Positions 18,262 to 36,867 are shown, counted from the first letter of the stretch. The stretch: DNA of 64,000 nt from an uncultured bacterium (GCA_964617625.1 CAZTZL010000001.1:9783-73782); one strand, 5' to 3'. The notes: generated by a model from the letters alone, not told the origin. Numbers and translations: made by a program.

Positions 18262-19032
18262 ATGATGGTAATGGAAATAATCGTAGTCGGTACATTGGGT
18301 TTGATTTTAGGAAGTTTTTTCAATGTACTAATTTACAGAATGCCAAAAGGTCTTTCAATTGTTCGACCTGGATCGCATTGCACCTCGTGTGGTCAGCCTG
18401 TAAAATTCTATGACAATATTCCGGTGTTAAGTTATATTTTGCTTAAAGGGCGATGCCGATCCTGTCATGCATCTTTTTCCTGGCGTTATCCAGCAGTTGA
18501 ATTGTTGACTGCATTTTGTCTTGTATCTGTGTTTTTAAAATACGGGTGGTCCAATCAAACCATTGCTTATGGTGTGCTTGTCCTATTTTTAATTCCAATC
18601 AGTTTTATCGATATCGATAATGGATTGATATTAAACAGATTGACGATTCCCGGTTTCATTTTGGGGATGGTTCTCATGATAGGGTTACAAATTGAAATAT
18701 GGTATATGGTTATAGCGGGGGCGCTGTTTGGAGGATTTTTGATTTTGGCGATTTCTTTTCTCGGGAAATTGTTATTTCGCAAGGAAAGCATGGGAATGGG
18801 GGATTTGAAACTCCTTGTTATGATTGGTGTTTACGTTGGATTTCCGAAAACAGCTCTGTGTTTGTTTTATGGAGTTTTTATAGCAGCACTGTTTATTTTT
18901 TACGGAATAATTTTTAAAAAAGTACGTATTGGTGACACAATCCCATTTGGTCCGTTTATTGCAATAGGCACTCTCGTGCATTTGCTGTTTGGTGAGCTCA
19001 TTATTAGCAAATATTTGGAGCTTTTTAGATAA
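18262..19032 (+). CDS. pilD: Prepilin peptidase (A24 family)
   Basis: It carries the Zn-binding tetracysteine CTSCGQP...CRSC and two Asp boxes (IDIDNGLILN and GMGDLKLL), with a polytopic membrane profile. A likely start ATG at 18262 lies just after the upstream stop at 18254-18256. The track ORF starts at 18166 inside the previous gene. Confidence 0.85.
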   Translation: MMVMEIIVVGTLGLILGSFFNVLIYRMPKGLSIVRPGSHCTSCGQPVKFYDNIPVLSYILLKGRCRSCHASFSWRYPAVELLTAFCLVSVFLKYGWSNQTIAYGVLVLFLIPISFIDIDNGLILNRLTIPGFILGMVLMIGLQIEIWYMVIAGALFGGFLILAISFLGKLLFRKESMGMGDLKLLVMIGVYVGFPKTALCLFYGVFIAALFIFYGIIFKKVRIGDTIPFGPFIAIGTLVHLLFGELIISKYLELFR

Positions 19033-19040
19033 ACAGTGAT

Positions 19041-19511
19041 GTGCAGGGAGGCTGGAGGGTCAGCCCAGAGATGGAAATTCAGGATGAAGTAAAAGATGCT
19101 CTTGTAACAAATACTCTACAAAGTGATGTTTTGGAAGGCGACGGAAGAAAGCAAATACTGGTTGTGGATGATGATCCTTTGATTGTTAAAATTCTTCGAG
19201 AACCTTTGGAAAGAGAGGGGTACAGTGTTCGAGTAGCTTCTCACGGTCTGGAAGCTCTCCAGGAAGTAAAAACTAATCGTCCGGATTTGATTATTCTCGA
19301 TATTTTAATGCCGATGCTCGATGGATTTAAAGTGGCTCGATTATTAAAATTTGATAAACGTTTCAAAGATATTCCAATCATTGTATTGACTTCACGTGCG
19401 ACAGAAGGAGAACGGAAAATGGGGCAACAGGTAGGGGCGAATGAATTCCTCTATAAGCCATTCCGTTATCCTCAGGTTTTGGACGTGGTAAGAAGGTATT
19501 TGGATGCCTGA
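19041..19511 (+). CDS. Single-domain response regulator (CheY/PilH-like receiver)
   Basis: Receiver motifs include ILVVDDDP, the phospho-accepting D in IILDILMP and LTSRAT...K. No output domain is present. It sits between pilD and pilB. Confidence 0.8.
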   Translation: MQGGWRVSPEMEIQDEVKDALVTNTLQSDVLEGDGRKQILVVDDDPLIVKILREPLEREGYSVRVASHGLEALQEVKTNRPDLIILDILMPMLDGFKVARLLKFDKRFKDIPIIVLTSRATEGERKMGQQVGANEFLYKPFRYPQVLDVVRRYLDA

Positions 19512-21282
19512 TCATGTAAAAACAGTCGCGAAGGTGACAACTCAAAAAAGCGATAACGATCGTGCATTGGCCCGTGCGTTGGTGGAGCGAAAAATTCTGA
19601 CGCTTCAGCAGGCAAAAGCCATTCTTGGGCAGATCAAAAACGGGAAAGCCCATATGTCATTCGAAGAACTTCTTCTAGAATCCGAATTGGCCACAGAAGA
19701 GGTTATTTTAGAAACGAAAGCATCCATACTGCATGTACCCTATATTGATCTGAAAAATTATGAAATAGATCCCGAAGTGCTCGAACTGATTCCCGGGAAT
19801 ATTGCACGTCAGTTCAATTTCTTCCCATTATTCAAGATCGACAGCACGCTTCTTTTGGCGATGATAGATCCCAAAGATGTGAAGGCGATTGACAAAGTAA
19901 CGCGGATCACCCAGCTTGAAATTTCTCCAGCACTTTCTTCCAGAGAAGCAGTCGAATCGGCCATTGATCGATATTACGGAAAGACCTCTGAACAATCGGT
20001 GAAAGTCTCGAACGAAGAAATGCAGGATATTTTAGAAGGCATTGAATCGGAAGAGACCAAAAGTGAAGAAGCTCATGAATCCATTCAGGATCTGGAGAAG
20101 CTGGCCGAAGAAGCTCCTGTCGTTAAAATGGCAAATATGATATTGACTCAAGCAATCATCGAAGGGGCTTCGGATATCCATATCAATCCTGAAGAAGATG
20201 AGCTCCGTGTTCGGTTTCGTCAGGACGGAATTTTACGTGAGACATTTCAACTGCCCAAAAACTTGCAGTCAGCAATTATTTCCAGAATAAAAATTCTGTC
20301 CAATCTGGATATAGCGGAACACCGGATACCGCAGGACGGGCAATTGCGTATAAAATTGAAAGACGGAAGACAGATTGATATCCGAGTTTCCACACTTCCT
20401 TCGGTGAACGGCGAGAATCTTGTACTTAGAGTCCTGGATAAAAGCGCGGCTTTGATGAGCCTCGACAATCTTGGTTATGAAGAAGATGTTTTGAACGGGA
20501 TCAAATCGCTTCTCAGCAATTCTTATGGCATCATCCTGGTGACCGGACCTACCGGAAGCGGTAAAACAACGACTCTATACGCCGCTTTGAATCATCTTGA
20601 TGCCATTTCACAGAACATTATCACGCTCGAAGATCCCGTCGAGTTTCGATTACCCCGAATCCGGCAATCCCAGGTCAATGTAAAAGCGGGAATGACTTTT
20701 GCCAAGGGATTACGGGCAATTTTGCGTCAGGACCCGGATATTGTTCTGGTAGGTGAAATTCGCGATGCAGAGACGGCTAATATTGCTGTTCAGGCAGCGC
20801 TGACCGGACATTTGGTTCTTTCTACTCTGCATACCAATGATGCTGCGGGCGGTATTACCCGATTGGCAGAAATGGAAATCGAGCCTTTTCTTGTTTCATC
20901 GGCCGTGCTTGGCATTATGGCCCAGCGTCTTGTCAGGAAAATTTGTCCGGAATGTAAAACAGAGTACAAGCCGAATTATCAGATTCCGAAAGATGTTTTC
21001 GAAAGTTTTGGCATCGAACATACGGATTCGATCAAATTTTTTCATGGAACCGGGTGCAAACATTGCCGCGATACCGGATATCAGGGACGAATGGCAATTA
21101 TGGAAGTCATTCAAATGAGTGAAAAAATTCGAGCGTGTGTATTGAAAGATGCACCTGCAGATCAAATTCGAAAGGTGGCCATGGAGGAGGGAATGCGGCC
21201 GCTGGCACATGATGGATGGGCAAAAGTGTTCAAAGGAATTACAACTGTTGATGAAGTGCTAAGAGTAACGAATATTGTATAA
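19504..21282 (+). CDS. pilB: Type IV pilus assembly ATPase PilB (GspE family)
   Basis: 592 aa with an N-terminal T2SE_N-like domain and the Walker A motif GPTGSGKTTT. The tetracysteine Zn motif CPECK...GCKHC is present. It overlaps the preceding gene by 8 nt. Confidence 0.9.
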   Translation: MPDHVKTVAKVTTQKSDNDRALARALVERKILTLQQAKAILGQIKNGKAHMSFEELLLESELATEEVILETKASILHVPYIDLKNYEIDPEVLELIPGNIARQFNFFPLFKIDSTLLLAMIDPKDVKAIDKVTRITQLEISPALSSREAVESAIDRYYGKTSEQSVKVSNEEMQDILEGIESEETKSEEAHESIQDLEKLAEEAPVVKMANMILTQAIIEGASDIHINPEEDELRVRFRQDGILRETFQLPKNLQSAIISRIKILSNLDIAEHRIPQDGQLRIKLKDGRQIDIRVSTLPSVNGENLVLRVLDKSAALMSLDNLGYEEDVLNGIKSLLSNSYGIILVTGPTGSGKTTTLYAALNHLDAISQNIITLEDPVEFRLPRIRQSQVNVKAGMTFAKGLRAILRQDPDIVLVGEIRDAETANIAVQAALTGHLVLSTLHTNDAAGGITRLAEMEIEPFLVSSAVLGIMAQRLVRKICPECKTEYKPNYQIPKDVFESFGIEHTDSIKFFHGTGCKHCRDTGYQGRMAIMEVIQMSEKIRACVLKDAPADQIRKVAMEEGMRPLAHDGWAKVFKGITTVDEVLRVTNIV

Positions 21283-21306
21283 ACAGAACAAAGGATAAAC
21301 CGAACA

Positions 21307-22512
21307 ATGCCATCTTATGAATACAAAGCTGTCACACCGACAGGAGAAATTGTTAACGAAGTACTGGAAGCAGCCAACGAACAGACCGTTTCCAAAGAAA
21401 TTTACCATAAGGGATACCGGCCGGTTTCGATAAAAATGCGAAAAGAGGGAAAGTCGGAGAGCAGCGGACTTTTTACAAAAAAAATCAAAGCCGATGAAAT
21501 CATTCTTTTCACACGTGAACTGGTTACGCTTCTGCGTGCCGGCGTTCCCATGCTCACCGCACTGGAAGCGCTCAGCTCCCAGAGCAGCAAAATGATGGGG
21601 GATGTGCTGAATCAGGTTTATGTCGATGTCATGTCGGGTAAAAGTTTTTCCCAGGCGCTGGACAAACATCCCAAGGTTTTTTCGAAACTTTATGTAAACT
21701 CGGTGTATGCCGGCGAAATGAGTGGTGCCCTTGATGAGGTTCTGGAGCGAATGGCATCTGTATTGAAACATGATGAGGAAACCAGTAAAAAAGTAAAGTC
21801 GGCCATGAAGTATCCGATCTTTGTTCTCAGTGCGATGGTTGTCGCGTTTATTGTGATCATGGCGGTGGTTGTTCCCAAGTTTACTACGATTTTCGATAGT
21901 ATGAATATGGAACTGCCCCTGCCAACAAAGATGCTTCTGGGAACGAGTAATTTTATCAAAAGTAATGTGATCGCCATTTTTGTGGTTGTGGTAGGGGGTG
22001 TTATCGGAATGACTACGTTTGTCAAGACCAAGAAGGGACGGTTCTGGTGGGACGGTTTTATCATGAAAATTCCTCTCATCGGTCCTCTCGCCTCCAAGAG
22101 TTCCATGGCCCGTTTCACAAAAATGTTCGAGACGCTGAACCGAAGCGGCCTCCCTATTCTCCAGACACTCACGACGGTATCAACCGCGGTAGGCAACACG
22201 GTTATAGAAAAAAGTATCAGGAATGTGGCAGTTGGTGTTGAGAAAGGTGGAGGTATTGCCGGTTCCATGAAAAAATTCGATCTGTTTCCTCCAATGGTTA
22301 TTCGCATGATTTCAATCGGGGAACAGTCAGGTTCGCTGGACGATATGCTGAAAAGCATTGCGAACCATTATGACATGGAAGTGGAATATGCGATTAAAGG
22401 GTTGACTACGATGATCGAACCACTGCTCACTATCGTTATGGCCGCAGCGGTGACCGTCCTGGCACTTGGTATTTTTCTGCCCATGTGGGGTATGGTGGGA
22501 GTGCTGAAATGA
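21307..22512 (+). CDS. pilC: Type IV pilus inner-membrane platform protein PilC (GspF family)
   Basis: 401 aa with duplicated GspF domains and three TM segments. The N-terminus reads MPSYEYKAVTPTGEIVNEVLEAANEQ. Confidence 0.9.
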   Translation: MPSYEYKAVTPTGEIVNEVLEAANEQTVSKEIYHKGYRPVSIKMRKEGKSESSGLFTKKIKADEIILFTRELVTLLRAGVPMLTALEALSSQSSKMMGDVLNQVYVDVMSGKSFSQALDKHPKVFSKLYVNSVYAGEMSGALDEVLERMASVLKHDEETSKKVKSAMKYPIFVLSAMVVAFIVIMAVVVPKFTTIFDSMNMELPLPTKMLLGTSNFIKSNVIAIFVVVVGGVIGMTTFVKTKKGRFWWDGFIMKIPLIGPLASKSSMARFTKMFETLNRSGLPILQTLTTVSTAVGNTVIEKSIRNVAVGVEKGGGIAGSMKKFDLFPPMVIRMISIGEQSGSLDDMLKSIANHYDMEVEYAIKGLTTMIEPLLTIVMAAAVTVLALGIFLPMWGMVGVLK

Positions 22513-23019: not shown

Positions 23020-23080
23020 TATCTTGAAATCAGAAAAATGACCTGGAATGGGTTTTTACATTCCGGGTTGTCTGGATCAT

Positions 23081-23186: not shown

Positions 23187-23738
23187 ATGAAAATCAGTAA
23201 GGAAAAAAAGTCTCTCCGTTCAAGAAAAGGATTTACACTCATTGAATTGATTGTCGTGATTACGGCTGTGGCCTTTTTGACCGGTGTGGTCGGGGTGAAT
23301 GTGCAGCATACAAATCAGCAGACAACGATATTCAATGCAGCCAATAAAGCACTTGCCGATTTGCGATATGCGGAAGAAGTGGCCATGACCACACACCGCA
23401 GGGTCGATTTCATTGTTAATCAGGGTGCGAATAAGTACGAAGTAAAATACCACTCTGATGGAACATATGTCAAATCATCGACTTCGGATGATGACGACCT
23501 GATCGTACAACTGGGTTCAGGAATATCCAGCGGTGTTACGATTACGTCTTCGGCAACCGGCAATACATTGTCGTTTATGGAATGGGGCGAACCGGCTTTG
23601 AATGGAGCCACTTTTACAGGCGAACGGTCTGTAGCGCGTTTTAACTCGCATATGCATCTCATTATTGTAGAATCGGGATATGCCTATCTGGCTGAAGAAG
23701 TCGGGGGTTCAGGATGCGGATTTACAATATGCCATTAA
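23187..23738 (+). CDS. Minor pilin / pseudopilin (FimT/GspH-like)
   Basis: A prepilin leader reads MKISKEKKSLRSRKG|FTLIELIVVITAVAFLTGVV, with Glu at +5. Confidence 0.7.
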   Translation: MKISKEKKSLRSRKGFTLIELIVVITAVAFLTGVVGVNVQHTNQQTTIFNAANKALADLRYAEEVAMTTHRRVDFIVNQGANKYEVKYHSDGTYVKSSTSDDDDLIVQLGSGISSGVTITSSATGNTLSFMEWGEPALNGATFTGERSVARFNSHMHLIIVESGYAYLAEEVGGSGCGFTICH

Positions 23739-24157
23739 AAAAACAGATTTGTCAATGTGCCGGCGAGAAGGGTTTTTCACTTGTCGAAGTGATTGTCATT
23801 ATTCTGATTCTCAGTATTGCGATTATTCCTTTGAGTCGGCTTGCAATCGGCAACATAGATGCCGGTCGTACTTATAGTCTGATTTCGCGGGGCACATTAT
23901 ACGCACAGGAAATCATGGAGAGAATCATTGCCGATTATGTTGCAGAATTGGAAGACAGCCAGGGGTACGACTGGGTAAAAAGCAACTGGCCCGGTACTGT
24001 TTCCGGCTCCCCCACAGGATTCACAGGCAATGTCGATATTTCAAGTGAAACAACGGTCAACAGCGTGACGTATGTCACGGTTACGGTTACTGTGAGCGCG
24101 AACGATATGCCGGATATCGTTCTGTCCACATGGCTGGTTGATCATGTCTTTGAATAA
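23729..24157 (+). CDS. Minor pilin (PilV-like)
   Basis: A prepilin leader reads MPLKKQICQCAGEKG|FSLVEVIVIILILSIAIIPL. The track ORF starts at 23714. It overlaps the preceding gene. Confidence 0.65.
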   Translation: MPLKKQICQCAGEKGFSLVEVIVIILILSIAIIPLSRLAIGNIDAGRTYSLISRGTLYAQEIMERIIADYVAELEDSQGYDWVKSNWPGTVSGSPTGFTGNVDISSETTVNSVTYVTVTVTVSANDMPDIVLSTWLVDHVFE

Positions 24158-24173
24158 CACAGCGGAGAGGATC

Positions 24174-24686
24174 ATGCCATCCGAATTAAAAAACAAGCAA
24201 TCCGGCTACACGCTGATCGAACTGGTTGTCGTTCTTCTTTTGACCGGTATTCTGATTGCAGCCGTTACGCCTTTTGTTGCCACCAATGTGGAGGCCTATA
24301 TGAAAATGAGGGTGGCAAAAAATATTGCACAGGGAGCGCGTGTGGGACTGCTTCGCATGACTGAAGAATTAAAAAGAGCGACCACTATCACTCGCTGCCG
24401 TTCGGACGAAATTGGATTTCGTTTTCAACCCCCAACTGGGTCCAATCGCGCTGTTACATACAGTGAATATCATGGCGCTCTCATGCGGGATGACGGCGGG
24501 GGCGATCAGCCGATGATTTACCCGATACAGAGTTTTAATCTCACGTATTATGATTCCAACGACAATACGACGTCTACTAAATCATATGTCAGGCGTATTC
24601 GAATAAAAATGGATGTAGGTCCCCCAGAATTCATGACCAGTATCCAAACCCAGGTTACTTTGCGAAATATATTTACAGGTAGTTAA
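24174..24686 (+). CDS. Minor pilin (PilW/GspJ-like)
   Basis: A prepilin leader reads MPSELKNKQSG|YTLIELVVVLLLTGILIAAV. The track ORF starts at 24138. Confidence 0.65.
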   Translation: MPSELKNKQSGYTLIELVVVLLLTGILIAAVTPFVATNVEAYMKMRVAKNIAQGARVGLLRMTEELKRATTITRCRSDEIGFRFQPPTGSNRAVTYSEYHGALMRDDGGGDQPMIYPIQSFNLTYYDSNDNTTSTKSYVRRIRIKMDVGPPEFMTSIQTQVTLRNIFTGS

Positions 24687-27589: not shown

Positions 27590-27594
27590 CGAAT

Positions 27595-28233: not shown

Positions 28234-31200
28234 ATGCGAAATCTGAGCCCAGCGAATAAACTGCTGATCTCATTCTGTGTTATACTCCCGGTGCTGTGTC
28301 TTTTTTGGTGTACATGCTCACAAAAAAGTCCGATGGATCCCACCAGTTCCCTACATAAAGATATCCCCATTTTGGTCGATATTCAGGCTTCTCCAAGTCA
28401 AATTGCTGTAGGTGAATCCCAATCTATCATACGTGTTCGTTTATTGGATAAAGATGGCAAACCTCTTGTCAATGAAGTTATTACATTCAGCACTTCCCTG
28501 GGAACGGTAACTACTGAAGCAACAACCGATGCCAATGGCTGGGCGCAATCGGTTTTTATCAGCGGGCAGGAAGTCGGAAATGCAAAAATTACTGCACAAT
28601 ATTCTGACAGGGCCTCTTCTGCCGTTATCGTGAATGTTATTTCACAATTGGATGCAAGGATCCGGCTTAGTGCGCAATTCGATGCAATTTATGCAAACGG
28701 AGTTGATGGAACCGATATTTATATTACGCTTTCGCCCGATGCAATGGACAGCAGCGGAGTGGTATCGCTCACAACATCGGCAGGTGTGATCGATTCTTAT
28801 ATAGAAATCAATGGCGAAACCAATTCTGTCAAGCTGATCAGTATCGCGAGTTCAAGAGATACCACCGCTGTAGTCACAGCCACATGGGGCGCATACTCGG
28901 CAGTGGTGACGGTTAAATTTAAGGGCATTCAGTTTTTTGTCGAATCACAATACAGTGAGCTTCCTCCTGACGGGAAAAGCAAAACCGCCATTATGGCGTA
29001 TGTAAAAGAAACAACAACACAAATAGGAGTCGAAGATCAGGAAATACGTTTTGGGACCTCAATCGGAAGCATCCCTTCTTCGGGAAAAACAGAGAATACA
29101 GGAATTGCCAGTGTAGATTTAACAAGTGGAACGATCGAAGGGATAGCGAATATTGTTGCGCGATATGGCGCCACATTTTTAGATACGGTGCAAGTGGAAT
29201 TTACGAGATCAAAATACTATTTTGACATCACAAGTGCATCAAACGCAATCCGTGCTAACGGCGAAGAAAGCAGCACAATTTCTGTTTCTGTGAAAGACCA
29301 GAACGGATATCCGGTCAGTGATGCTATGGTCCGGTTTGGAACCACAGTCGGAAGTATTGATTCCATTAAATTAACCAATAGTTCAGGAACAGCGGAAGCC
29401 ACTCTGATGAGTGCACCAAGTACTGCGGACCAGTGGGCGATAGTATCAGCCGTTGTGGATAGTGCCAGTAAAACAACCCAGGTATTGATGAAAGGTATTT
29501 TATTTGACCTTCAGGCGACGCCGACATATATAATTGCAGATGGTAAAAGCAAATCTGATGTCAAAGTGTTTTTAAAAGAGGTAACGACAGGTATCGGGAT
29601 TCCTGGTGCTTCTATTCGACTGGGTACGAATCTGGGTTCTATTCCCTCTGCAGTTACAACGGACCAGCAAGGTTTTGTGCAGATTCAATTAACCAGCAGT
29701 ACAACTCAGGGTCTGTCCAGGGTGCTTGGAGAGTATGGAAATATTCTCAAAGATTCTGTGTTTGTTCAATTTGGATCGATGGTTTCCCACAAATTAAAGC
29801 AGATCAAGGTTGAACCATCATCCTTGCTCGCCAATGGCGTGGATCAATCTTCAGTGAGCGCCTATGTGGAAGATGGAAATGGAGATCCGGTTTCCAAGGT
29901 GATTGTATCGTTTCAGACAAATTCAGGCAAAATTGAAAGTCAAGCCTTGACAGATGCAAACGGGCTGGCCACAGTTAAATTTACACCTCATGCGAGTCCC
30001 TTTGACAGCATCGCATCTGTTGCGGCTATTCTCGATACACAGATGGTTTCTACAATAATTAGAAGTGTCGGGGTTCAAGTGGATTTGTCGGCAACACCGG
30101 AAAGTATACTGGCTGACGGAAAAAGCACATCAAAAATAAAAGCCGTTTTGAAAGAGACCACCAGAAAGATAGCTATTCCCGAAGCGACTGTTTATTTCGG
30201 AACGGATCTGGGAACGATTGCCTATCAGGCGCAAACCAATACGCAGGGAGTGGCTACTGTCGATTTGACGAGTGGTACTCAGACAGGAACGGCACATGTG
30301 AAAGTTCGTTACGGTCAGGTCCTTGAAGACAGTGTCGAAGTTGTTTTTCAGGAATCCCAGCCGACCTATATCACTCTTTCAGCAACGCCTGCATTTATAA
30401 CGGCAGACAATCAGAGCCAAGCCACAATCAAAGCAGTTGTTTCCGATGCCAGTTGGAACCCGGTTGCGGATGGAACCATGGTTCAGTTTATTATTGTAGA
30501 AGGCACCGGCTCGATAGGCTCACAACAAATTACACAAAATGGGATTGCATTTACTTATTTGACAAGCGGCTCTTCTCCGGATACAGCTAAAATTATTGCC
30601 CGTGTCGGCAGTTTAATCTCGGATACTGTGAAAGTAATCTATACAATCGGCAATGTGGAAAATGTAGCTGTTTCTGTGAATCCCAATACAATTCCTGCGG
30701 ATGGTGTCACAAAAAGCGCCGTACAAGCTTCCGTAACGGATGCTTTGGGCCATCCCGTTGAAAATGTGTCCGTCAATTTTACGGCTACAATCGGCAAGAT
30801 CGGAATCAGCGCCAGAACCGATGAAAATGGGATTGCCAGTGTAGAATTTTCAAGTACGGTGATTGGATTATCGACTATCACAGCACAGGTCCTGTCGGAT
30901 GGTAAGACGATATCAGGTACTTCAATTATTCAGATACTTCCCGGCAGTCCCTATTATGTTATTGTCTCTTATTCACCATTATTTGTCTACGTCCGGGACT
31001 GCGGTAAACATCAAACCGTGTCGGTTTACGCGGATATCCGGGATGAAAAGAACAATCCCGTTGCAGACGGCACCTATGTCAAGTTTTCAATAATCGCATC
31101 GCCGGGATACGGAGATTCTCTCAGTACGGTCGAACCAGTGCCAACCGTGGGCGGTATCTCTCAGGTTTCGTACACCAGCGGGACACGGTCAGGGACAGCC

Positions 31201-32136
31201 CGGATCAAAGCCCAGGTCACAGACGGAGACGGCAATCCGCTCATTCCGGAAGTCGCCGGGACATCCACTGAATTCGTGATTTATTCAGGGCCGCCGTATA
31301 TCGAAGATATTTACGATCCATCATCGACCCATTTGACAATAACGGCTTCAAGTTTAAATACCTGGTCATGGCTGGGCTCGGACAGTATCTCCATTCTTGT
31401 CGGGGATAAGTACAACAATCCTGTTCAAAAAGGAACGGCCGTTTATCTGACCGCTTCTAGCGGTGTTGTGACCACGACGGCCTATACGGATACCAATGGT
31501 ATCGCGAATGTAATTTGGACTGGTGGCAATCCGACTCCGACCATCGACCGGTTTTACAATTATACGGGAATGCAGGATCCGAATACAGGCGCACAGATTG
31601 GTGACCATGTTTCTGATCCGCGCATACCGAATATGGAATATGATCCGGAACTTGGCAGAGGACGTGTGATCAATACCAAAGGAGATTATGGCGAGAATGA
31701 TGGTATAGCACGATTAATTGCCTGGACACAAGGAGTCGATGAAAACAATCAGTCGGCAAAACCCTGGGCCGAACTCCAGGTGATCTGGTCGAAAACCATT
31801 GCTCATTTTGAACAGACCACGTACAAGGATACGATCTGGCCCGGAGAATATGCCCGTATACGTTTTGAATTGTGGGACGCAAACGGCAATCCTGTTGTCA
31901 GCGGATCCGAGCTGACCGCCAGTGTCGAACCAAGCACTGCCAAAGCCGAACTTTCCTGGACGAGCCAGATAACTTATGATCCGGGTCAGTGCTATTACAA
32001 TTTATATGTTTATAATGTGATAGATATCACCAAGGATGAAGATCGGCCGGGATGGATGCGTGTGATGATCAGTGTATCCAGTGTGAATGGAGGCGGATAC
32101 ATTTATTCTGATGAAATTTATCTGGCCAAAGATTAA
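28234..32136 (+). CDS. Large secreted/lipoprotein with ~10 tandem Big_1 (invasin/intimin-type Ig-like) domains, embedded in the pilus operon
   Basis: 1300 aa. The signal peptide with Cys reads LLISFCVILPVLCLFWCTCS. Repeats of ~95 aa match the Big_1 pattern (A.P..I.ADG.S.S.I.A.V.D..GNPV....V.F....G......T.TD.NG.A.V.L.S....G...V.A). A non-repeat C-terminal region of ~400 aa follows. Confidence 0.8.
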   Translation: MRNLSPANKLLISFCVILPVLCLFWCTCSQKSPMDPTSSLHKDIPILVDIQASPSQIAVGESQSIIRVRLLDKDGKPLVNEVITFSTSLGTVTTEATTDANGWAQSVFISGQEVGNAKITAQYSDRASSAVIVNVISQLDARIRLSAQFDAIYANGVDGTDIYITLSPDAMDSSGVVSLTTSAGVIDSYIEINGETNSVKLISIASSRDTTAVVTATWGAYSAVVTVKFKGIQFFVESQYSELPPDGKSKTAIMAYVKETTTQIGVEDQEIRFGTSIGSIPSSGKTENTGIASVDLTSGTIEGIANIVARYGATFLDTVQVEFTRSKYYFDITSASNAIRANGEESSTISVSVKDQNGYPVSDAMVRFGTTVGSIDSIKLTNSSGTAEATLMSAPSTADQWAIVSAVVDSASKTTQVLMKGILFDLQATPTYIIADGKSKSDVKVFLKEVTTGIGIPGASIRLGTNLGSIPSAVTTDQQGFVQIQLTSSTTQGLSRVLGEYGNILKDSVFVQFGSMVSHKLKQIKVEPSSLLANGVDQSSVSAYVEDGNGDPVSKVIVSFQTNSGKIESQALTDANGLATVKFTPHASPFDSIASVAAILDTQMVSTIIRSVGVQVDLSATPESILADGKSTSKIKAVLKETTRKIAIPEATVYFGTDLGTIAYQAQTNTQGVATVDLTSGTQTGTAHVKVRYGQVLEDSVEVVFQESQPTYITLSATPAFITADNQSQATIKAVVSDASWNPVADGTMVQFIIVEGTGSIGSQQITQNGIAFTYLTSGSSPDTAKIIARVGSLISDTVKVIYTIGNVENVAVSVNPNTIPADGVTKSAVQASVTDALGHPVENVSVNFTATIGKIGISARTDENGIASVEFSSTVIGLSTITAQVLSDGKTISGTSIIQILPGSPYYVIVSYSPLFVYVRDCGKHQTVSVYADIRDEKNNPVADGTYVKFSIIASPGYGDSLSTVEPVPTVGGISQVSYTSGTRSGTARIKAQVTDGDGNPLIPEVAGTSTEFVIYSGPPYIEDIYDPSSTHLTITASSLNTWSWLGSDSISILVGDKYNNPVQKGTAVYLTASSGVVTTTAYTDTNGIANVIWTGGNPTPTIDRFYNYTGMQDPNTGAQIGDHVSDPRIPNMEYDPELGRGRVINTKGDYGENDGIARLIAWTQGVDENNQSAKPWAELQVIWSKTIAHFEQTTYKDTIWPGEYARIRFELWDANGNPVVSGSELTASVEPSTAKAELSWTSQITYDPGQCYYNLYVYNVIDITKDEDRPGWMRVMISVSSVNGGGYIYSDEIYLAKD

Positions 32137-32157
32137 AAATCCTAATGGAGTTTTGAA

Positions 32158-32922
32158 ATGAAAATAGTAAAATGGATGTTTTGTCTGCTTTGGATTGTTA
32201 CTTTCTCCTATTTGCATGCCCAAATTGCGGGTAATCCAGTCGAAGCAAAAGGCGAAAGCGAATGGACCATCAGCGCTGCCGGCAGTTATGTCGATATGGG
32301 ATTGGGTCAGGAACAAGTGTCTTCTCATCGTATTTTGATTAAAAGCAGCTGGGGAATCACCGATCGGATCGATATTTATGGACTCATCGGAATGGTTCAT
32401 TTGCATATGGGGATCAATCAGGAAAATGTATCGGATTATGAAGGGGAATATGAATTTGGCTATGGAGTGGGTTTTAATATGATTTTAAAACCTGTCTCGG
32501 ATATAAATCGAATGGGGTTCTGGTGCGGAGCACAAGTATTGCGGTTTCCTTCAAATGGAAAATTTGTCGAATCGACTCAATTGGCCAACTATGAATATGA
32601 TATGAAATATGACTGGAAGGAAGTTCATGTCTATCTCGGCATCGTCTATCCTTATCAGCATTTCCGTTTTTATGCAGCGGCTGCCGGCTATTTGATTCAG
32701 AGAAATGATACGAAACAGGAATTCATTGTGTATGGCGATGAGAGAACATACTGGGGTGAAGTTAAAGATGTCTATCGAAGCGGATTATGGACAGGAGCCA
32801 TTCTGGGAGTTGAACTTAATCTGGCGAATCGATTTGCTCTCAGCCTCGAGGGGCTCATTTTTAATACTCAAAATTATCAAATAAAAATAGGAATTTGTCA
32901 GACTGGGAGTGAAGGATGGTAG
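32158..32922 (+). CDS. Small outer-membrane beta-barrel protein (OmpW/OmpA-like 8-10 strand barrel)
   Basis: 254 aa with a signal peptide (...FSYLHA|QIAG). Hydrophobic and polar residues alternate in strands, and aromatic girdle residues are present. The C-terminal residue is aromatic (W). Confidence 0.55.
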   Translation: MKIVKWMFCLLWIVTFSYLHAQIAGNPVEAKGESEWTISAAGSYVDMGLGQEQVSSHRILIKSSWGITDRIDIYGLIGMVHLHMGINQENVSDYEGEYEFGYGVGFNMILKPVSDINRMGFWCGAQVLRFPSNGKFVESTQLANYEYDMKYDWKEVHVYLGIVYPYQHFRFYAAAAGYLIQRNDTKQEFIVYGDERTYWGEVKDVYRSGLWTGAILGVELNLANRFALSLEGLIFNTQNYQIKIGICQTGSEGW

Positions 32923-33040: not shown

Positions 33041-33520
33041 ATGGCGCTGAAAAAAAGCGAAAAACGTATGCTAATCATCCTTGCGGGCGTCGTGGCTGTT
33101 GCCGGGATATTCAAGCTGATTGATAAGCCAAAAAATGTGAAGCCGGTTCCGGCAATTAATCAAAACCATCCGATCCAGACTCCCGGACAAGTGCTCCCGC
33201 CGCAAACCCAGGTACAATCTGCCAATGCAAACAGCAGTAAAAAAATTGTTAAATTTAAAAAATATGATTCATGGGGAAGGGATCCGTTTACGATTGTGAA
33301 GCCGCCTCCGCCGCCTAAAAAGATACCCCCGATGAAAATCGATGTGGTATTGAAAGGCATATTTTGGGAAGCAGGTAAAGCCTATGTATTAATCGATGAC
33401 TATGTGCTGAGTGAAGGTGAAGAGGAGGGTGGTATCAAAGTTGAAAAAATAGAAGGGAAGAATGTTATTTGTCGAAAAGGAGGCCGTCAATTCACTTTAC
33501 AATGGAGAGAAACATCATGA
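33041..33520 (+). CDS. pilP: Type IV pilus assembly protein PilP-like
   Basis: 159 aa with an N-terminal TM/signal anchor and a Pro-rich linker (PPPPKKIPP). An RDPF motif is present. The C-terminal beta-domain reads LKGIFWEAGKAYVLIDDYVLSEGEEEGGIKVEKIEGKNVI. Its stop overlaps the pilQ start (ATGA). Confidence 0.65.
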   Translation: MALKKSEKRMLIILAGVVAVAGIFKLIDKPKNVKPVPAINQNHPIQTPGQVLPPQTQVQSANANSSKKIVKFKKYDSWGRDPFTIVKPPPPPKKIPPMKIDVVLKGIFWEAGKAYVLIDDYVLSEGEEEGGIKVEKIEGKNVICRKGGRQFTLQWRETS

Positions 33521-35760
33521 AATGGAAAAATAGTCCTTTGAGACGAATAGCTCTGTTGGGATGGCTTTTCCTCTTTATTCCAATGCTTTTTGGTGAAGCC
33601 AACCTGCTTTCAATTAAAAAGGGAAAAGAAGGAGATAAGTGCTGGGCTATTTTCTCTTTTAACGAAAATGCACAATGGATTGGTATCTCCCAAAAAGAGG
33701 GTGAAAAGTTATGCCTCTATTTTTCAGGAATGGCAGGTCAAATGGATGGTCAAACCATTCAATTGGATGCATCCAAAGGGAAAATGATTACCATTAAGCA
33801 GATGACGAAAAATCCCCCCATTTTTAGAGCAGATCTGCACTATGATGGTGAGGAACCACTGGCTGTTTTAAAAAAGAATAAAAACCTGGTAATAGGTTTA
33901 AACGATCAGCAATTGCTTGAAGGGAAAATGACCGGGTTTGATGAAACCATCCAGCCTCCAGGCCGCTTGGTTAAAGTCACTCCGGAATATTCTGGTAAAA
34001 AAGTAACGACTTCTCTTCAGTTTGACGGAACGTATGATTGGGTAGGATATATCAGACCGTCCATTGATGAAGCCTTTCTGCTTATCCGGGGTGCAAAACT
34101 GTTTACGGGCGACCATGATTTTTCATTTGAAGAAGGGCCGCTTCAAACCATGAAATTATCTTCACAGAATGATGGAGATAAAGGTGTTAAGGCGGCAATG
34201 TACTTTGCTCCCCTTTCTTCATTTTCAATTGTACAGAAAGATGAAAATCTGATGATACAAACACCACATGTAAAAACAAGCGTGCCTGAAAAAGAAGAAG
34301 AATCATTCGCAACGGTTGAAAAAGAAGAATCAACACCGCCGGCAGACGTTCCGTCCGTTCCGGTTGTTGGTGAAGTCCCAGCTGAAATAAAAAAAGAAAT
34401 TGAACCGGAAAAACAAGCTGAAAATAATCAATCCTTTCAGGAAGAAAAACCTCTACAAATTCAAACGACAAATGAACAGGAATCAAAAGAAATCTCTCCT
34501 CAAGAGGAAGAATCAACGGATCAAATTAACTGGGACAGACGAGTATCATTTAAATTTCATTCAACCCCGATAAAAAGCGCGCTTCGGCTTTTGGCTTCCT
34601 CCAACAATTTGAATATGGTCATTGGAGAAGGTGTAGACGGACAGGTTACGATGAATTTGGAAAATGTGACACTGAAACAAGCGCTTGATATGATTGTTCA
34701 TGTGAATAATTGTGATTATGTCATGGATGATAATATCATCACCATCCGACCTGTTGCAATGGCTTTTACGGGAGGACGGATTACAAAAGTCTATCGGTTA
34801 AAATATGCGGATGCATTTAATGTAGCCGGCGTTGTAAGAAAAATTGTAACCAACGACACGCTGGTCGAAGTATTTCATCCGGAATTTCTGAATTTTCTTG
34901 AGGCGGGCAAGAATCGGATGCAAACCAATAAAGTTGCTGTGCAGGGAATTCGAAGATCAAGTACACTGGTGGTAACAGACCGGCCCGAAAAAATCAGGGA
35001 GGTGGATGTTGTTATTGCTGAACTTGATCGTGCTCCCATTCAAATTATGATAGAATCCAAACTGGTCGAGTTGGCACCCAATTCCAGTGATAAAATGGGA
35101 ATTGATTGGGATAAGACATTGTCAGCTCAATTGTGGAATCAGATGAAAGTCGGAGATGATAAACTGGATTATTCGCTGATTAATAGGGGTACTGACAAGT
35201 TAGGTGATTGGAAAATGGGTTATCTTTCAGCGGGACAGTACAATGTTATTCTTGATTTTCTGAAATCAAAAACAGATTCCAAACTTGTTTCCAATCCGCG
35301 TATTCTTGCTCTGGATAATGAGGAATCTTCGATCAGTGTCGGAACCACCGTTCCCGTGCCGCAAATTCAGAGAGGATCGGCAGGAAATTCCGATATGGTC
35401 ACTTTTGAGTATAAGGAAGTGAATATCCAGTTAAATGTGACGCCGCATGCTGATGATAATGATAAAATCACCATGTATGTAAATCCGGTCATCGAAGAAA
35501 TTACCGGATGGGTTGAATATGATCAGAACAGAGCGCCTGTTACCGACAAGAGATCTGTGAACAGTATTGTCACTGTAAAGAATGGTGAAACTGTCGTCAT
35601 AGGCGGGCTTATTAAAACTCAGAGAATCGAAACGGTTAGAAAAGTCTGGCTGCTTGGCAGTTTGCCTCTTTTTGGAAAGCTGTTTCAGCATAAAGAAGTT
35701 GATGACAGGCAAACAGATCTGATGATCTTCATTACACCAACAATAATAAATATGGGATAG
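33517..35760 (+). CDS. pilQ: Type IV pilus secretin PilQ
   Basis: The secretin C-domain reads ...VVIGGLIKTQRIETVRKVWLLGSLPLFGKLFQHKEVDDRQTDLMIFITPTII. Upstream it has N0/N1-type domains (VYRLKYADAFNVAGVVRKIV) and AMIN-like N-terminal domains. An E/P-rich linker is present. The start ATG at 33517 overlaps the pilP stop. The track ORF starts at 33469. Confidence 0.9.
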   Translation: MKWKNSPLRRIALLGWLFLFIPMLFGEANLLSIKKGKEGDKCWAIFSFNENAQWIGISQKEGEKLCLYFSGMAGQMDGQTIQLDASKGKMITIKQMTKNPPIFRADLHYDGEEPLAVLKKNKNLVIGLNDQQLLEGKMTGFDETIQPPGRLVKVTPEYSGKKVTTSLQFDGTYDWVGYIRPSIDEAFLLIRGAKLFTGDHDFSFEEGPLQTMKLSSQNDGDKGVKAAMYFAPLSSFSIVQKDENLMIQTPHVKTSVPEKEEESFATVEKEESTPPADVPSVPVVGEVPAEIKKEIEPEKQAENNQSFQEEKPLQIQTTNEQESKEISPQEEESTDQINWDRRVSFKFHSTPIKSALRLLASSNNLNMVIGEGVDGQVTMNLENVTLKQALDMIVHVNNCDYVMDDNIITIRPVAMAFTGGRITKVYRLKYADAFNVAGVVRKIVTNDTLVEVFHPEFLNFLEAGKNRMQTNKVAVQGIRRSSTLVVTDRPEKIREVDVVIAELDRAPIQIMIESKLVELAPNSSDKMGIDWDKTLSAQLWNQMKVGDDKLDYSLINRGTDKLGDWKMGYLSAGQYNVILDFLKSKTDSKLVSNPRILALDNEESSISVGTTVPVPQIQRGSAGNSDMVTFEYKEVNIQLNVTPHADDNDKITMYVNPVIEEITGWVEYDQNRAPVTDKRSVNSIVTVKNGETVVIGGLIKTQRIETVRKVWLLGSLPLFGKLFQHKEVDDRQTDLMIFITPTIINMG

Positions 35761-35763
35761 AAT

Positions 35764-36867
35764 ATGATTGGAAGGGAGCAGATCAATCAATTACTTGCAC
35801 ATGCAGTAAAGAATAACGCATCCGATATTCATTTATGTGAGGCCTATCCACCAATCGTCCGGATCGACGGCAAATTGGTTCCACTGAAAGGCAAAATCCT
35901 GACCAAACAGGATATGGAAGATATAATCGTTCAGCTGTTGGATGATTATCAAATGGAGAGATTCAGGAAAGATCTCGAAATTGATTTTGGATATGCCGTA
36001 CCCGGACTGGCTCATTTCAGAACAAATGCTTTTACAAAATTGGGAGGATTTGGCCTCGCTTTTCGAATTATTCCCGATCAAATACGAAGTTTGGAAGAGC
36101 TGGGTATGCCCGAAGGTGTGATTCGTCTTGCAAAGGAATTCGAGGGTCTTGTACTGGTTACCGGACCGACAGGGCACGGTAAATCAACGACTTTGGCCGG
36201 AATGATCAAGCTTATGAACGATGAACGTCATTCGCATATCATTACTGTAGAAGATCCTATTGAATATAGTTACAAACGCAAAAACTGTTTGATTCAACAA
36301 AGAGAATTGGGACATCATACAAGATCTTTTGCAGCTGCTTTAAAGAGTGCACTCAGGGAAGATCCTGATGTCATCCTGGTCGGAGAAATGAGAGATTTGG
36401 AAACAATATCGTTGGCACTCACCGCTGCAGAAACCGGGCATTTGGTTCTTTCCACATTGCATACAAGAGATGCTCCGGATACAGTGAATCGAATTATTGA
36501 TGTTTTTCCTGCGGGACAACAAGGGCAGGTTTTGGCACAAATTGCAGGTTCATTGCTGGGAGTGGTTTCACAACGATTGCTTCCTACTGCTTCTGGTTCT
36601 GGAAGAGTGGCTGCGGTTGAAGTTTTGTTGGCGAATTCGGCGGTTAGAAATCTTATTCGTGAGAAAAAGATACATCAAATTCCATCGATCATGCAAACAG
36701 CAACGACAGTGGGAATGCAGACAATGGATGACAGTCTTCTGCAATTGGTACGAGACAATAAAATAACGCGGCAAATTGCCATTAAATATGCTAAAGAACC
36801 CGAGAGATTCCTGCCAAAATTTAATACCGAAAATAAAAAACGTTTCGTAAAAAAAGAAACGATTTAA
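35764..36867 (+). CDS. pilT: Twitching motility retraction ATPase PilT
   Basis: 367 aa with no N-terminal T2SE_N domain. Walker A reads GPTGHGKSTT. The N-terminus is PilT-like (...DIHLCEAYPPIVRIDGKLVPL). Confidence 0.9.
   Translation: MIGREQINQLLAHAVKNNASDIHLCEAYPPIVRIDGKLVPLKGKILTKQDMEDIIVQLLDDYQMERFRKDLEIDFGYAVPGLAHFRTNAFTKLGGFGLAFRIIPDQIRSLEELGMPEGVIRLAKEFEGLVLVTGPTGHGKSTTLAGMIKLMNDERHSHIITVEDPIEYSYKRKNCLIQQRELGHHTRSFAAALKSALREDPDVILVGEMRDLETISLALTAAETGHLVLSTLHTRDAPDTVNRIIDVFPAGQQGQVLAQIAGSLLGVVSQRLLPTASGSGRVAAVEVLLANSAVRNLIREKKIHQIPSIMQTATTVGMQTMDDSLLQLVRDNKITRQIAIKYAKEPERFLPKFNTENKKRFVKKETI

Follow-up and report, generated by a model that had tools for sequence, protein, structure and literature searches.

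The locus analysed here raises two questions, namely which machine its row of pilus-like genes encodes and whether all of the genes in that row belong to it. It lies within a window of 64,000 nucleotides, this being the whole stretch of DNA that was analysed, and the host is an uncultured sediment bacterium of an FCB-group lineage related to candidate division KSB1, a label carried by two related MAGs. An earlier note on this DNA had described a complete type IVa pilus (T4aP) system encoded contiguously between positions 18262 and 36867. The row of co-oriented ORFs and most of the named families could be confirmed, but the inventory was incomplete, with the ORFs of a Big_1 lipoprotein and of an outer-membrane barrel having been missed. 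The locus is best read as a conserved super-operon in which all core genes of a retractile type IV pilus stand in a single row and share one orientation, and from sequence comparison we consider it quite likely to encode a T4aP-class retractile machine with embedded genes of putative adhesins.

Layout and conservation of the locus

ORF calling placed 17 co-oriented plus-strand ORFs in the region 18262–36867, with gaps of no more than 205 bp and several overlaps (Table 1). Spacing is particularly tight between the receiver gene and pilB (8 bp overlap), between the genes of the PilP analogue and pilQ (4 bp overlap) and between pilQ and pilT (3 bp gap). Denise et al. (2019; PMC6668835) bear out the contrast that had been drawn with the scattered pilus loci of proteobacteria. 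The whole gene order was found to be kept in related species-level genomes with sufficient contig reach, down to a PilMN identity of 37%; with this conservation across relatives, the genes are not clustered by chance. The GC content is even, both within the locus and in its flanks, and the neighbouring trxB gene is conserved in relatives, which argue for vertical inheritance of the locus. A chemosensory cluster also neighbours the pilus locus.

Table 1. Features of the locus, with positions in the window, strand and the evidence for each assignment.
Position	Strand	Feature	Evidence and remarks
12866–18256	+	Giant T9SS-sorted surface protein, 1796 aa	Big_5 110.8 bits; TIGR04183 Por_Secre_tail 33 bits (cut-off 23)
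18262–19032	+	Prepilin peptidase/N-methyltransferase PilD	A24_N_bact 115.7 bits and Peptidase_A24 56 bits, both above cut-off
19041–19511	+	Stand-alone CheY-like receiver	Response_reg 98.5 bits; overlaps pilB by 8 bp
19504–21282	+	Extension ATPase PilB	T2SSE 457.6 bits; MshEN
21307–22512	+	Inner-membrane platform protein PilC/GspF	T2SSF twice, 187 bits
22681–23019	+	Major pilin	N_methyl 39.3 bits; mechanical ORF begins at TTG 22651
23062–23076	+	Short terminator-like hairpin behind pilin gene	Consensus scan, weak evidence
23187–23738	+	Minor pilin, GspH/FimU type	N_methyl 26.6 bits; GspH 27.2 bits, above cut-off of 21
23714–24157	+	Minor pilin, PilV/GspI position	N_methyl 24.7 bits; TIGR02523 PilV 30 bits, below cut-off of 52
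24174–24686	+	Minor pilin, PilW/GspJ position	N_methyl 33 bits; ComGF sub-threshold; mechanical ORF begins at 24138
24892–25821	+	Pilin-like protein, 309 aa, PilX/GspK position	Position and N-terminus only
25850–27589	+	PilM-PilN fusion, 579 aa	PilM_2 80 bits (cut-off 27)
27595–28194	+	PilO	Pfam PilO PF04350, 35.9 bits (cut-off 22)
28234–32136	+	Lipoprotein, 1300 aa	Big_1 276 bits; Invasin_D3 269.5 bits
32158–32922	+	Outer-membrane beta-barrel, 254 aa, ~10 strands, signal peptide	Structure model
33041–33520	+	PilP analogue, 159 aa	HR-domain fold; overlaps pilQ ATG by 4 bp
33517–35760	+	Secretin PilQ	Secretin 152.6, STN 39.6 and one Secretin_N 34.1 bits; mechanical ORF begins at TTG 33469
35764–36867	+	Retraction ATPase PilT	TIGR01420 466.9 bits (cut-off 319.1)
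36882–36929	+	Long terminator-like hairpin	20-pair stem and T tail, 15 bp past pilT stop; consensus scan

Both neighbours that had been named as flanks were identified by family models, the upstream gene by the T9SS sorting model and the downstream one by TrxB TIGR01292 (381 bits against a cut-off of 343), but the T9SS cargo gene probably belongs to the operon and not to its flank. Its product combines an fn3 domain, many Big_5 repeats, two repeats of ~140 aa and, at the C-terminus, a sorting domain of type A (residues 1712–1792), and its likely ATG start is near 12905. The operon probably begins at 12866 with this gene as its first, because its stop lies 5 bp before the ATG of pilD and because it immediately precedes pilD in 11 related loci as well (44–84% identity). 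The long hairpin behind pilT probably marks the 3' end of the operon, and the short one behind the pilin gene may be an attenuator.

Components of the probable pilus machine

Family searches identified a prepilin peptidase, a PilB-type ATPase, PilC/GspF, a major pilin, PilM, PilO, a secretin and PilT, all as previously claimed. The families scoring above their curated cut-offs were PilT, PilM, PilO, prepilin peptidase, N_methyl, GspH, Secretin and STN, while PilB, PilC, PilQ and the pilin all scored below the NCBIfam equivalog cut-offs. Translations of the PilD and PilT genes show the motifs GMGDLK and AVRNLIRE, respectively. A receiver-only regulator was indeed found between pilD and pilB; a family search of this ORF returned no output domain, and with 65–93% identity across relatives it is among the best-conserved genes of the locus. 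For the PilB ORF the best model was TIGR02538 PilB (626 bits, cut-off 676), followed by GspE (602 bits, cut-off 630), both falling below cut-off. Against solved structures it matched PilBs over their full length with 480, 451 and 450 bits and GspE with at most 420 bits, Thermus PilF being among its best matches. The PilC ORF scored 345 bits with GspF (cut-off 424), 334 with Thermus-type PilC and 298 with Myxococcus-type PilC, again all below cut-off.

The major pilin carries an 8-residue leader, MKTRSQRG, followed by FTLVE, which gives a cleavage site between G and F and a Glu at position 5. Its mature length is ~104 aa, and three Cys are invariant in the alignment. The profile of this pilin family matched Thermus PilA5 (6xxe/8qqj) over positions 9–104 with E = 1e-14, compared with just 1.8e-6 for GspG, and the best NCBIfam match of the pilin itself was GspG (45 bits, cut-off 89). 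As regards the four minor pilins claimed previously, three are prepilins with an N_methyl match. Profiles of the second and third matched pilin N-termini only in the PDB, and their PilV/GspI and PilW/GspJ subtypes are candidate assignments made from position only. The fourth matched no family and is pilin-like at its N-terminus only, where EEGF(W/F)SA precedes a hydrophobic helix and there is no Glu at position 5, an arrangement conserved in at least 16 homologues. This 309-aa protein had no match in Pfam, NCBIfam or the PDB, and it is a candidate for a non-canonical fourth pilin-like component.

The gene described as pilMN encodes a fusion, the PilM half of which was confirmed and the PilN half weakly supported. 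It comprises a cytoplasmic actin-like domain, a transmembrane helix, a coiled coil and a periplasmic domain. Its profile matched Myxococcus PilM in the PDB with E = 5e-40, positions 375–496 matched Myxococcus PilN weakly (E = 0.0023), and a weak Amuc_1101-family match covers both halves. There was no match to GspL in the profile search of the PDB nor to PilN in Pfam. The ORF previously called pilP matched no PilP model, and Pfam PilP PF04351 was matched neither by this ORF nor by its 17 homologues. It does have the fold of an HR domain, placed at the C-terminus behind a disordered linker and an N-terminal transmembrane helix that serves as the anchor; it has no lipobox, PilP itself being a lipoprotein whose HR domain binds N0 of the secretin. 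The AF2 model reaches a pLDDT of >90 at residues 100–155, and its top Foldseek matches were the GspC HR domain (3oss_C, TMt 0.70), Dickeya GspB and the PilP proteins of Myxococcus, Neisseria and Pseudomonas, followed by the HR domains of LspC and PulC. The model thus supports a GspC/GspB/PilP-type HR domain. Among the homologues, weak T2SSB matches were obtained for 9 of the 17 and weak, sub-threshold T2SSM matches for 3.

The secretin consists of a signal peptide, an N-terminal region of ~330 aa, an acidic linker, N0 (STN), one N1 and the secretin domain; no AMIN domain was matched in a family search of the ORF. The set of STN, a single Secretin_N and Secretin agrees with the architecture of a PilQ. 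TIGR02515 PilQ was its best model (233 bits, cut-off 284), with GspD at 203 bits (cut-off 351). Residues 356–760 align with Neisseria and Vibrio PilQ, and in the comparison with solved structures GspD and PilQ scored about equally. Family searches of the ORFs of the locus matched no PilY1, TPR or LysM/TsaP-type domain and found no PilF/Tgl pilotin, in agreement with the earlier note, which had listed pilY1, a pilF/tgl-type TPR pilotin and tsaP as missing from the locus. The opposite strand encodes a TPR protein 11 kb upstream, which scored just 83 bits with the PilW model (cut-off 154) and 30 bits with that of Tgl (cut-off 225).

From the domain identities, folds, gene order and synteny described above we infer T4aP assembly and retraction. 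PilD would cleave the short leaders of the PilA5-like major pilin and of the three minor prepilins and probably methylate the new N-termini. The 309-aa protein, together with the minor pilins, would prime the filament, which PilB would polymerise on the PilC platform. The PilM-PilN fusion, PilO and the bitopic HR-domain protein would form an alignment complex docked on the N0 domain of the PilQ secretin, and depolymerisation by PilT would then retract the filament for adhesion, twitching or uptake. The highly conserved receiver, whose translation is coupled to that of pilB, would probably supply the motors with sensory signals. Embedded in the operon are the genes of the Big_1 lipoprotein with its 11 Ig-like domains and of its ~10-strand barrel, and the gene of the T9SS-sorted giant Big_5 protein directly precedes pilD. 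The signalling role of the receiver, the surface exposure of the Big_1 protein and its coupling to the pilus are predictions made from the sequence.

The Big_1 lipoprotein and barrel genes

The locus had been taken to be filled by pil genes only. This did not hold, as the Big_1 lipoprotein and barrel genes, lying between pilO and the gene of the PilP analogue, take up 4.7 kb (28234–32922), or one quarter of the locus. The lipoprotein has 11 Big_1/Invasin_D3 Ig-like repeats at residues 50–1104, followed by a beta-rich C-terminal module of ~196 aa. Its homologues have 5–15 repeats, and both the lipobox Cys and the C-terminal module are conserved in them. The model of the barrel, built from 10 sequences, is of moderate confidence (pLDDT 76). 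The barrel gene is an obligate neighbour of the lipoprotein gene, and the C-terminal module and the barrel are paired in distant lineages also; judged by this linkage, the two genes are a fixed two-gene module.

It could be argued that the two genes are an unrelated adhesin cassette which was inserted in the pil operon and has no functional tie to the pilus. The pair does behave as a self-contained module, since in three other loci (L033, L038 and L039) it is followed by an unrelated gene, a Peptidase_M23, and its architecture matches no known pilus component. However, every one of the 19 related loci that reach that far (the count being that of the related genomes whose contigs extend far enough from pilO to pilQ) has the pair inserted between pilO and the gene of the PilP analogue, down to the 37% PilMN identity given above and despite the splitting of an otherwise universal pilMNOPQ block. 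One distant lineage (L037) has the pair again beside pilus genes, directly after pilC, the pilin, the minor pilins and a T9SS-type cargo gene, although in a different arrangement. The gaps of 39 bp before the lipoprotein gene and 21 bp before the barrel gene further imply that the pair is co-transcribed. Such an insertion is on this evidence unlikely.

We favour instead a tie between the pair and the pilus, in which the Big_1/barrel pair and the T9SS Big_5 protein are putative cell-surface adhesins working with the pilus, the role of the pair being read from gene linkage only. The pair may take the role of a PilY1-type adhesin. A more far-reaching proposal, which we put forward tentatively and regard as possible but doubtful, is that the two genes form a previously undescribed adhesin system, a split and lipid-anchored analogue of an autotransporter that acts as an integral pilus accessory and as a stand-in for PilY1, and that together with the T9SS giant protein it links pilus retraction to T9SS-delivered adhesins. 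If this were true, pilus retraction would be tied to T9SS-delivered surface adhesins across the whole candidate lineage.

Secretion, DNA uptake and comparison with known systems

The locus could also encode a secretion system derived from a T4aP, like the Bacteroidetes "T2SS". A short pseudopilus would then push periplasmic cargo through the secretin, and the Big_1 lipoprotein would be surface cargo held by the 254-aa barrel. Delivery of a lipoprotein to the cell surface by a T2SS has a precedent in the pullulanase of Klebsiella, and here a candidate lipoprotein cargo is encoded within the operon itself. The gene order E-F-G-H-I-J-K-(L-like fusion)-M is the canonical gsp order, the PilM-PilN fusion is GspL-like in architecture, and the pilin is small. 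PilC scores best on GspF, the top NCBIfam match of the pilin is GspG, and the best structural matches of the HR-domain protein are GspC and GspB. The Bacteroidetes "T2SS" was found always to cluster with T4aP and may be an independent, T4aP-derived secretion system (PMC6668835), its phylogenetic placement being with T4aP and not with T2SS (PMC6668835; PMC5553014), and the present lineage is of the superphylum of the Bacteroidetes (PMC11683472).

Against this stands PilT, with a score above its curated cut-off and a gene 3 bp behind pilQ that is syntenic, at 64–96% identity, in every relative whose contig extends to it. PilT has no occurrence in the paper on the Cytophaga cluster (PMC5553014). 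In addition, all Gsp equivalog cut-offs were missed (GspD, GspE, GspF and GspG), the T2SSM signals among the PilP-analogue homologues were just weak, PilA5, a true pilus subunit, is by far a better match to the pilin profile than GspG, and PilB ranks above GspE. Secretion as the function of the locus thus appears improbable. The T4aP assignment also withstood the possibility of reassignment to T2SS or competence families, as no ORF reaches any curated T2SS or Com family cut-off. A ComG pilus, the monoderm-type locus of which has no secretin, was considered separately and rejected, with ComGA at 275 of 300, ComGB at 149 of 240 and ComGC at 30 of 75 bits and with a secretin and PilT present.

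A main role in DNA uptake, with the pilus serving competence like the diderm T4aP of Thermus and Neisseria and not motility or adhesion, seems very improbable. Several diderms do transform by means of T4aP machines that include PilT and PilQ (Denise et al., 2019; PMC6668835), HofQ is among the matches of the secretin (159.5 bits, below cut-off), and weak ComGD and ComGF matches were obtained for two of the minor pilins. But the scores of all five ComG families concerned (ComGA, ComGB, ComGC, ComGD and ComGF) lie below their cut-offs, no ComEA, ComEC or DprA domain was matched in the scanned ORFs of the window, and adhesion or motility is the better fit for the adhesin-like genes within the operon and for the chemosensory cluster beside it. 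Thermus PilA5, to which the pilin is similar, is moreover the subunit of the narrow pilus according to the PDB. We take PilA5 to form the twitching pilus of Thermus, with the transformation pilus being made of PilA4.

Returning to the retractile T4aP that we prefer, single-cluster T4aP systems are already known, and in Myxococcus xanthus, as here, most core genes lie in one chromosomal cluster. The Myxococcus machine (3jc8) supplies the best PDB matches of the fusion, PilM and PilN, and its PilP is among the top folds of the 159-aa protein. The ABC ATPase and ABC-2 permease found within the locus in two relatives (L020 and, by spacing, L026) recall Myxococcus pilGHI. Myxococcus makes PilM and PilN as two proteins, encodes its minor pilins and PilY1 elsewhere in the genome, and further relies on a TPR pilotin (Tgl) and on PilS/PilR; the present locus, in contrast, has its minor pilins inside, in a gsp-like order, a fused PilM-PilN and the embedded Big_1/barrel genes, with neither PilY1 nor Tgl in the locus. 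The narrow pilus of Thermus thermophilus is similar in its subunit, as PilA5 (111 aa) is matched almost end to end by the major pilin family. Thermus has its genes distributed over several loci, a PilF with extra N-terminal domains and a secretin with additional periplasmic rings, and we know of no Big_1/barrel module in it.

The proteobacterial T2SS (Gsp/Pul/Eps) has in common with the locus the order E to M and a small filament subunit. GspL is likewise one polypeptide with a cytoplasmic actin-like domain and a bitopic periplasmic part, and the HR-domain protein is nearest in fold to GspC and GspB. A T2SS identity was nevertheless rejected: the actin-like domain is PilM_2 and not GspL, the protein in the PilO position matches PilO and not GspM, no GspL or GspC PDZ match was obtained, and of the GspL, GspM and GspC platform only the HR fold is shared. 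The secretin here has one N1 and not N1–N3, and PilT is present above its cut-off. The Bacteroidetes "T2SS" of Cytophaga hutchinsonii (CHU_3191–3201) is similar by description, being a single cluster from the same superphylum with very divergent PilM/N/O/P-like parts. That cluster has been implicated in secretion and not in motility, and no PilT was described in it (PMC5553014).

The embedded pair has its own counterparts. The Big_1/Invasin_D3 rod is of the passenger type of intimin and invasin, and intimin was its sole sequence match in the PDB (5e-4). Fold neighbours of the barrel include the autotransporter translocator domains of BrkA, NalP, Hbp, EstA and AIDA-I. Here, unlike in autotransporters, the rod, a lipoprotein, and the barrel have a gene each, with that of the barrel on the downstream side. 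An inverse autotransporter, in which a single polypeptide has an IAT beta-barrel ahead of the Big_1 passenger, was considered and rejected, there being no IAT_beta match, neither an intimin nor an invasin barrel in the top structural matches, and a barrel encoded by a separate gene. As for the tip adhesins PilY1/PilC, the C-terminal strand of PilY1 has been described to complement a PilX/GspK-like protein (bioRxiv 10.64898/2026.02.14.705861). The Big_1 protein differs from these adhesins in having no PilY1/PilC domain match, in being lipid-anchored and in its beta-rich C-terminus of ~196 aa in place of a large propeller. It is likewise a large non-pilin protein encoded beside the machine in a system otherwise without an adhesin, which makes it a candidate functional substitute for PilY1/PilC.

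Gene content, limits and neighbours of the pilus locus

ORF calling in the window gave 17 ORFs lying back to back on the forward strand and filling 18262-36867, and these were identified using Pfam and NCBIfam models (see table). The genes named in the earlier note, which had described a complete type IVa pilus (T4aP) system, are present by these models, as are the flanking genes it had proposed: upstream, a gene that satisfies the T9SS type A sorting-domain model, and downstream, one that satisfies the TrxB model. That description had however left out two ORFs (4.7 kb), and the names "pilP" and "fourth minor pilin" had been given to ORFs (159 and 309 aa) without any family match. Profile searches against PDB sequences gave nothing meaningful for the 309-aa protein, and for the two minor pilins without a subtype they matched the shared pilin N-terminus only.

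Features of the pilus locus and its surroundings (window positions)
Feature	Position	Strand	Models or contents
Rnf/Nqr-type complex genes (left edge)	459-3428	-	FMN_bind, RnfD/NqrB family, RnfC
TPR protein	6285-7571	-	Generic TPR scores; PilW and Tgl models far below cut-off
TPR protein with adjoining genes	6285-10113	-	BamG-family barrel protein (249.3 bits, cut-off 250); DNRLRE/CBM96-domain protein
686-aa TMEM260-like protein	10456-12516	-	Protein O-mannosyltransferase family
Divergent intergenic region, 349 bp	12517-12865
T9SS cargo gene	12866-18256		T9SS type A sorting domain
Prepilin peptidase (PilD)	18262-19032	+	A24_N_bact and Peptidase_A24
Receiver-only response regulator	19041-19511	+	Response_reg
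PilB/GspE-family ATPase	19504-21282	+	T2SSE (458 bits), MshEN
PilC/GspF platform protein	21307-22512	+	T2SSF
Prepilin, 112 aa	22681-23019	+	N_methyl
Three further prepilins	23187-24686	+	N_methyl; first also passes GspH
309-aa ORF	24892-25821	+	No family match (Pfam, NCBIfam)
579-aa PilM-domain protein	25850-27589	+	PilM_2
PilO	27595-28194	+	PF04350
1300-aa Big_1 protein	28234-32136	+	Nine Big_1 and eight Invasin_D3 stretches
254-aa ORF	32158-32922	+	OMP_b-brl, sub-threshold only
159-aa ORF	33041-33520	+	No family match (Pfam, NCBIfam)
Secretin (PilQ)	33517-35760	+	STN, one Secretin_N, Secretin
PilT	35764-36867	+	TIGR01420 (467 bits, cut-off 319)
Thiol/redox row	36954-40337	+	TrxB, ArsR-type regulator, thioredoxin, AhpC/TSA-Redoxin, OsmC, Thioredoxin_3 protein
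Chemosensory cluster	42894-56819	+	CheW, CheR with TPR repeats, CheW, MCP with HAMP, CheA-CheW-REC hybrid, CheB; 1297-aa hybrid kinase (GAF, HisKA, four REC, Hpt); 384-aa REC protein
thiC	56983-58299	+
tRNA-Met	60787-60862
238-aa ORF, unmatched	63168-63884

Only 5 bp separate the end of the T9SS cargo gene from pilD, and this adjacency is conserved, so that the transcription unit probably starts after the divergent intergenic region. At the other end, a hairpin of 20 pairs with a T-run lies 3' of pilT. No regulatory RNA was found within the locus using Rfam, and no TPP riboswitch was found upstream of thiC at the Rfam gathering threshold; a tRNA-Met is the sole RNA gene found in the window. 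The canonical acidic pocket, Thr and Lys are all present in the receiver; its gene and pilB overlap by 8 bp, and its identity over the clade is 65-93%.

A chemosensory cluster occurs 6 kb downstream of pilT, with a layout similar to that of Wsp- or Frz-type systems; a link between it and the pilus receiver is conjecture. Flagellar families had no match among the scanned window ORFs, which were the larger ones other than the unmatched 238-aa ORF. The TMEM260-like protein, encoded divergently from the cargo/pilus operon, is a putative glycosylator that may act on surface proteins or pilins. With its generic scores, the TPR protein was not adopted as a PilF/Tgl-type pilotin. The Rnf/Nqr-type genes are followed by nrdR, dCMP deaminase and serine hydroxymethyltransferase, an ordinary housekeeping context.

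Assignment to the type IVa pilus class

The T4aP call withstood comparison with the type II secretion (T2SS) and competence-pilus (Com) families, as no ORF reached a T2SS or Com equivalog cut-off in NCBIfam. PilT lies above its own cut-off and carries the AVRNLIRE motif. Solved T4aP PilBs, among them those of Myxococcus (PilB) and Thermus (PilF), gave PilB scores of 480, 451 and 450 bits, compared with 420 bits or less for GspE; in NCBIfam the PilB model (626 bits) likewise exceeded the GspE model (602), both being just under cut-off. In the alignment of the pilin family, a short leader precedes a G|FTL(V/I)E cleavage site and three Cys are invariant; the family matches Thermus PilA5 nearly end to end (1e-14), with GspG reaching only 1.8e-6. 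The secretin has a single N1 domain and can be aligned from N0 to the C-terminus with the PilQ proteins of Neisseria and Vibrio, its raw scores against GspD and PilQ being about equal.

Among PDB sequences, the family profile of the 579-aa protein matches PilM of Myxococcus at 5e-40 and PilM of Thermus and Pseudomonas at about 1e-25, indicating a PilM-type actin-like domain. Profile positions 375-496 match Myxococcus PilN at 0.0023, and GspL had no match. The protein is therefore a PilM-PilN fusion in which support for the PilN half is weak. Both halves are also covered by a weak Amuc_1101-family match, suggesting that such fusions have a precedent. The protein in the PilO position matches PilO and not GspM.

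Homologs of the 159-aa protein start with a transmembrane helix, continue through a variable linker and end in a conserved C-terminal domain; a WGRDPF motif is also common to them. Its PDB sequence profile search gave nothing meaningful, and weak T2SSB matches were found in 9 of 17 homologs. An AlphaFold2 model (53 sequences) contains a six-stranded domain (residues 100-155, pLDDT above 90), for which the first-ranked Foldseek match in the PDB was the GspC HR domain in complex with GspD (3oss_C, TMt 0.70), followed by Dickeya GspB (rank 2), PilP of Myxococcus, Neisseria and Pseudomonas (ranks 3, 4 and 7) and the HR domains of LspC and PulC (ranks 13 and 16). The E-values are weak (best 0.015) on account of the small domain, and the top specific matches all share one secretin-N0-binding fold. 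The protein is a predicted PilP analogue with an HR domain, outside the Pfam PilP family. The stop codon of its gene overlaps the pilQ ATG by 4 bp.

A secretion system is the minority reading of this machine. PilC scores slightly higher with the GspF model than with the PilC model, the best NCBIfam match of the pilin is GspG, and the gene order of the locus is that of gspE-F-G-H-I-J-K-L-M. The "T2SS" of Bacteroidetes is reported to group with T4aP, from which it may have been derived independently as a secretion system (Denise et al., 2019; PMC6668835). PilT passes its cut-off here, and none is mentioned in the paper describing the Cytophaga cluster (PMC5553014). The secretion reading is therefore retained as a minority one. 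On balance, the machine is of the T4aP class with a T2SS-like layout.

The Big_1 lipoprotein and its predicted outer-membrane barrel partner

The 1300-aa Big_1 protein has a lipobox Cys that is kept in all homologs, 11 Ig-like repeats recurring about every 96 aa (residues 50-1104) and a C-terminal module of about 196 aa carrying conserved motifs. Relatives have 5-15 repeats and retain this module, and the only PDB sequence match was intimin. The protein was rejected as a PilY1 homolog, having no PilY1 domain and too small a C-terminal module, but by analogy it could possibly be a functional counterpart of PilY1. We infer that its rod is a surface adhesin acting with the pilus.

In the 254-aa protein encoded next, a signal peptide is followed by a mature N-terminus that is conserved. 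Its model, which is of moderate confidence as it comes from an alignment of only 10 sequences, shows about 10 strands forming a barrel (pTM 0.71). The closest folds were pOmpT, Pla, a Legionella T4SS-associated porin, OpcA, FapF and autotransporter translocators, with no intimin or invasin barrel among them, and a PDB sequence profile search gave nothing meaningful. Despite the similar fold, an omptin protease was rejected (identity 6-12%, Omptin family unmatched).

The barrel family is small, with 143 representatives among 1.84 billion proteins. Nine distant members were inspected, and in seven of the eight where the upstream gene was readable it ends in the Big_1 C-terminal module (loci L033, L036, L037, L038, L039, L040 and L041); in the eighth (L034) it has weak Ig-repeat similarity only. 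In L037 (1-10795), PilC and a pilin are followed by four small ORFs, then by a DUF4900 protein and by a beta-helix protein whose C-terminal domain is T9SS-like, and finally by the Big_1 protein, the barrel and unrelated genes; PilMNOPQ and PilT are not adjacent. Its pilin is 46% identical to that of the present locus and three of its four small ORFs match the minor pilins here, the 189-aa ORF matching no window protein. Given these distant pairings and the L037 arrangement, Big_1 and barrel form a fixed module, and its linkage to pilus genes takes at least two forms. The barrel would be the dedicated outer-membrane partner of the lipoprotein, with the C-terminal module probably mediating. In L033, L038 and L039 a Peptidase_M23 gene takes the place of the PilP analogue and PilQ downstream of the pair.

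Conservation in the clade and comparison with known systems

There is an identical JGI metagenome contig of 16.8 kb. The PilM-fusion family has about 100 homologs, every one of them from a MAG labelled "bacterium" or "candidate division KSB1"; PMC11683472 assigns Zhuqueibacterota, the phylum derived from KSB1, to the FCB superphylum. A scan of species-representative genomes gave 28 loci, onto which all window proteins were mapped by BLASTP. The full order (T9SS cargo, PilD, receiver, PilB, PilC, pilin, four small ORFs, PilMN, PilO, Big_1 protein, barrel, 159-aa protein, PilQ, PilT, TrxB) was seen again wherever the contig was long enough. Big_1 and barrel genes occur in all 19 loci reaching that far, the cargo gene abuts pilD in 11 and TrxB lies 3' of pilT in 8. 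In one related locus (L016), however, the 10 kb upstream of pilMN (1-10000) hold no pilD, pilB, pilC or pilin homolog; part of the clade therefore has the system divided over two or more loci, and the single-locus state is typical of the clade, not universal. GC content is even over the locus and flanks; this evenness and the conserved housekeeping neighbour favour vertical inheritance over a mobile island.

Another relative, L020, carries an ABC ATPase, an ABC-2-type permease and a 320-aa protein (16193-18884) between the barrel gene and the PilP analogue, and L026 has a gap of about 2.7 kb of the same size and place. This insert is reminiscent of pilGHI, which encode an ABC transporter in the pil cluster of Myxococcus.

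Mechanistic understanding of T4aP comes almost entirely from Proteobacteria, Myxococcus and Thermus, and nothing specific was found in the literature on pili of KSB1 or Zhuqueibacterota. The present locus is a compact, vertically inherited, all-in-one version from a poorly known uncultured FCB lineage, spanning 18.6 kb within the limits of the earlier note and about 24 kb with the cargo gene. As it is compact, heterologous expression of the complete machine may be feasible. T4aP genes are usually multi-locus (Denise et al., 2019; PMC6668835).

The core machine is of a known kind. New are the compact organisation with its gsp-like order and PilM-PilN fusion in this lineage, the conserved Big_1 lipoprotein/barrel module within the pilMNOPQ block, and the coupling of a T9SS cargo gene to pilD; the last two suggest still unknown ways to equip pili with adhesins. 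With its gsp order, GspL-like PilM-PilN fusion and GspC/GspB-like HR protein, yet with PilT and a true pilin, the layout is intermediate between T4aP and T2SS, and useful for reconstructing the origin of secretion systems from pili.
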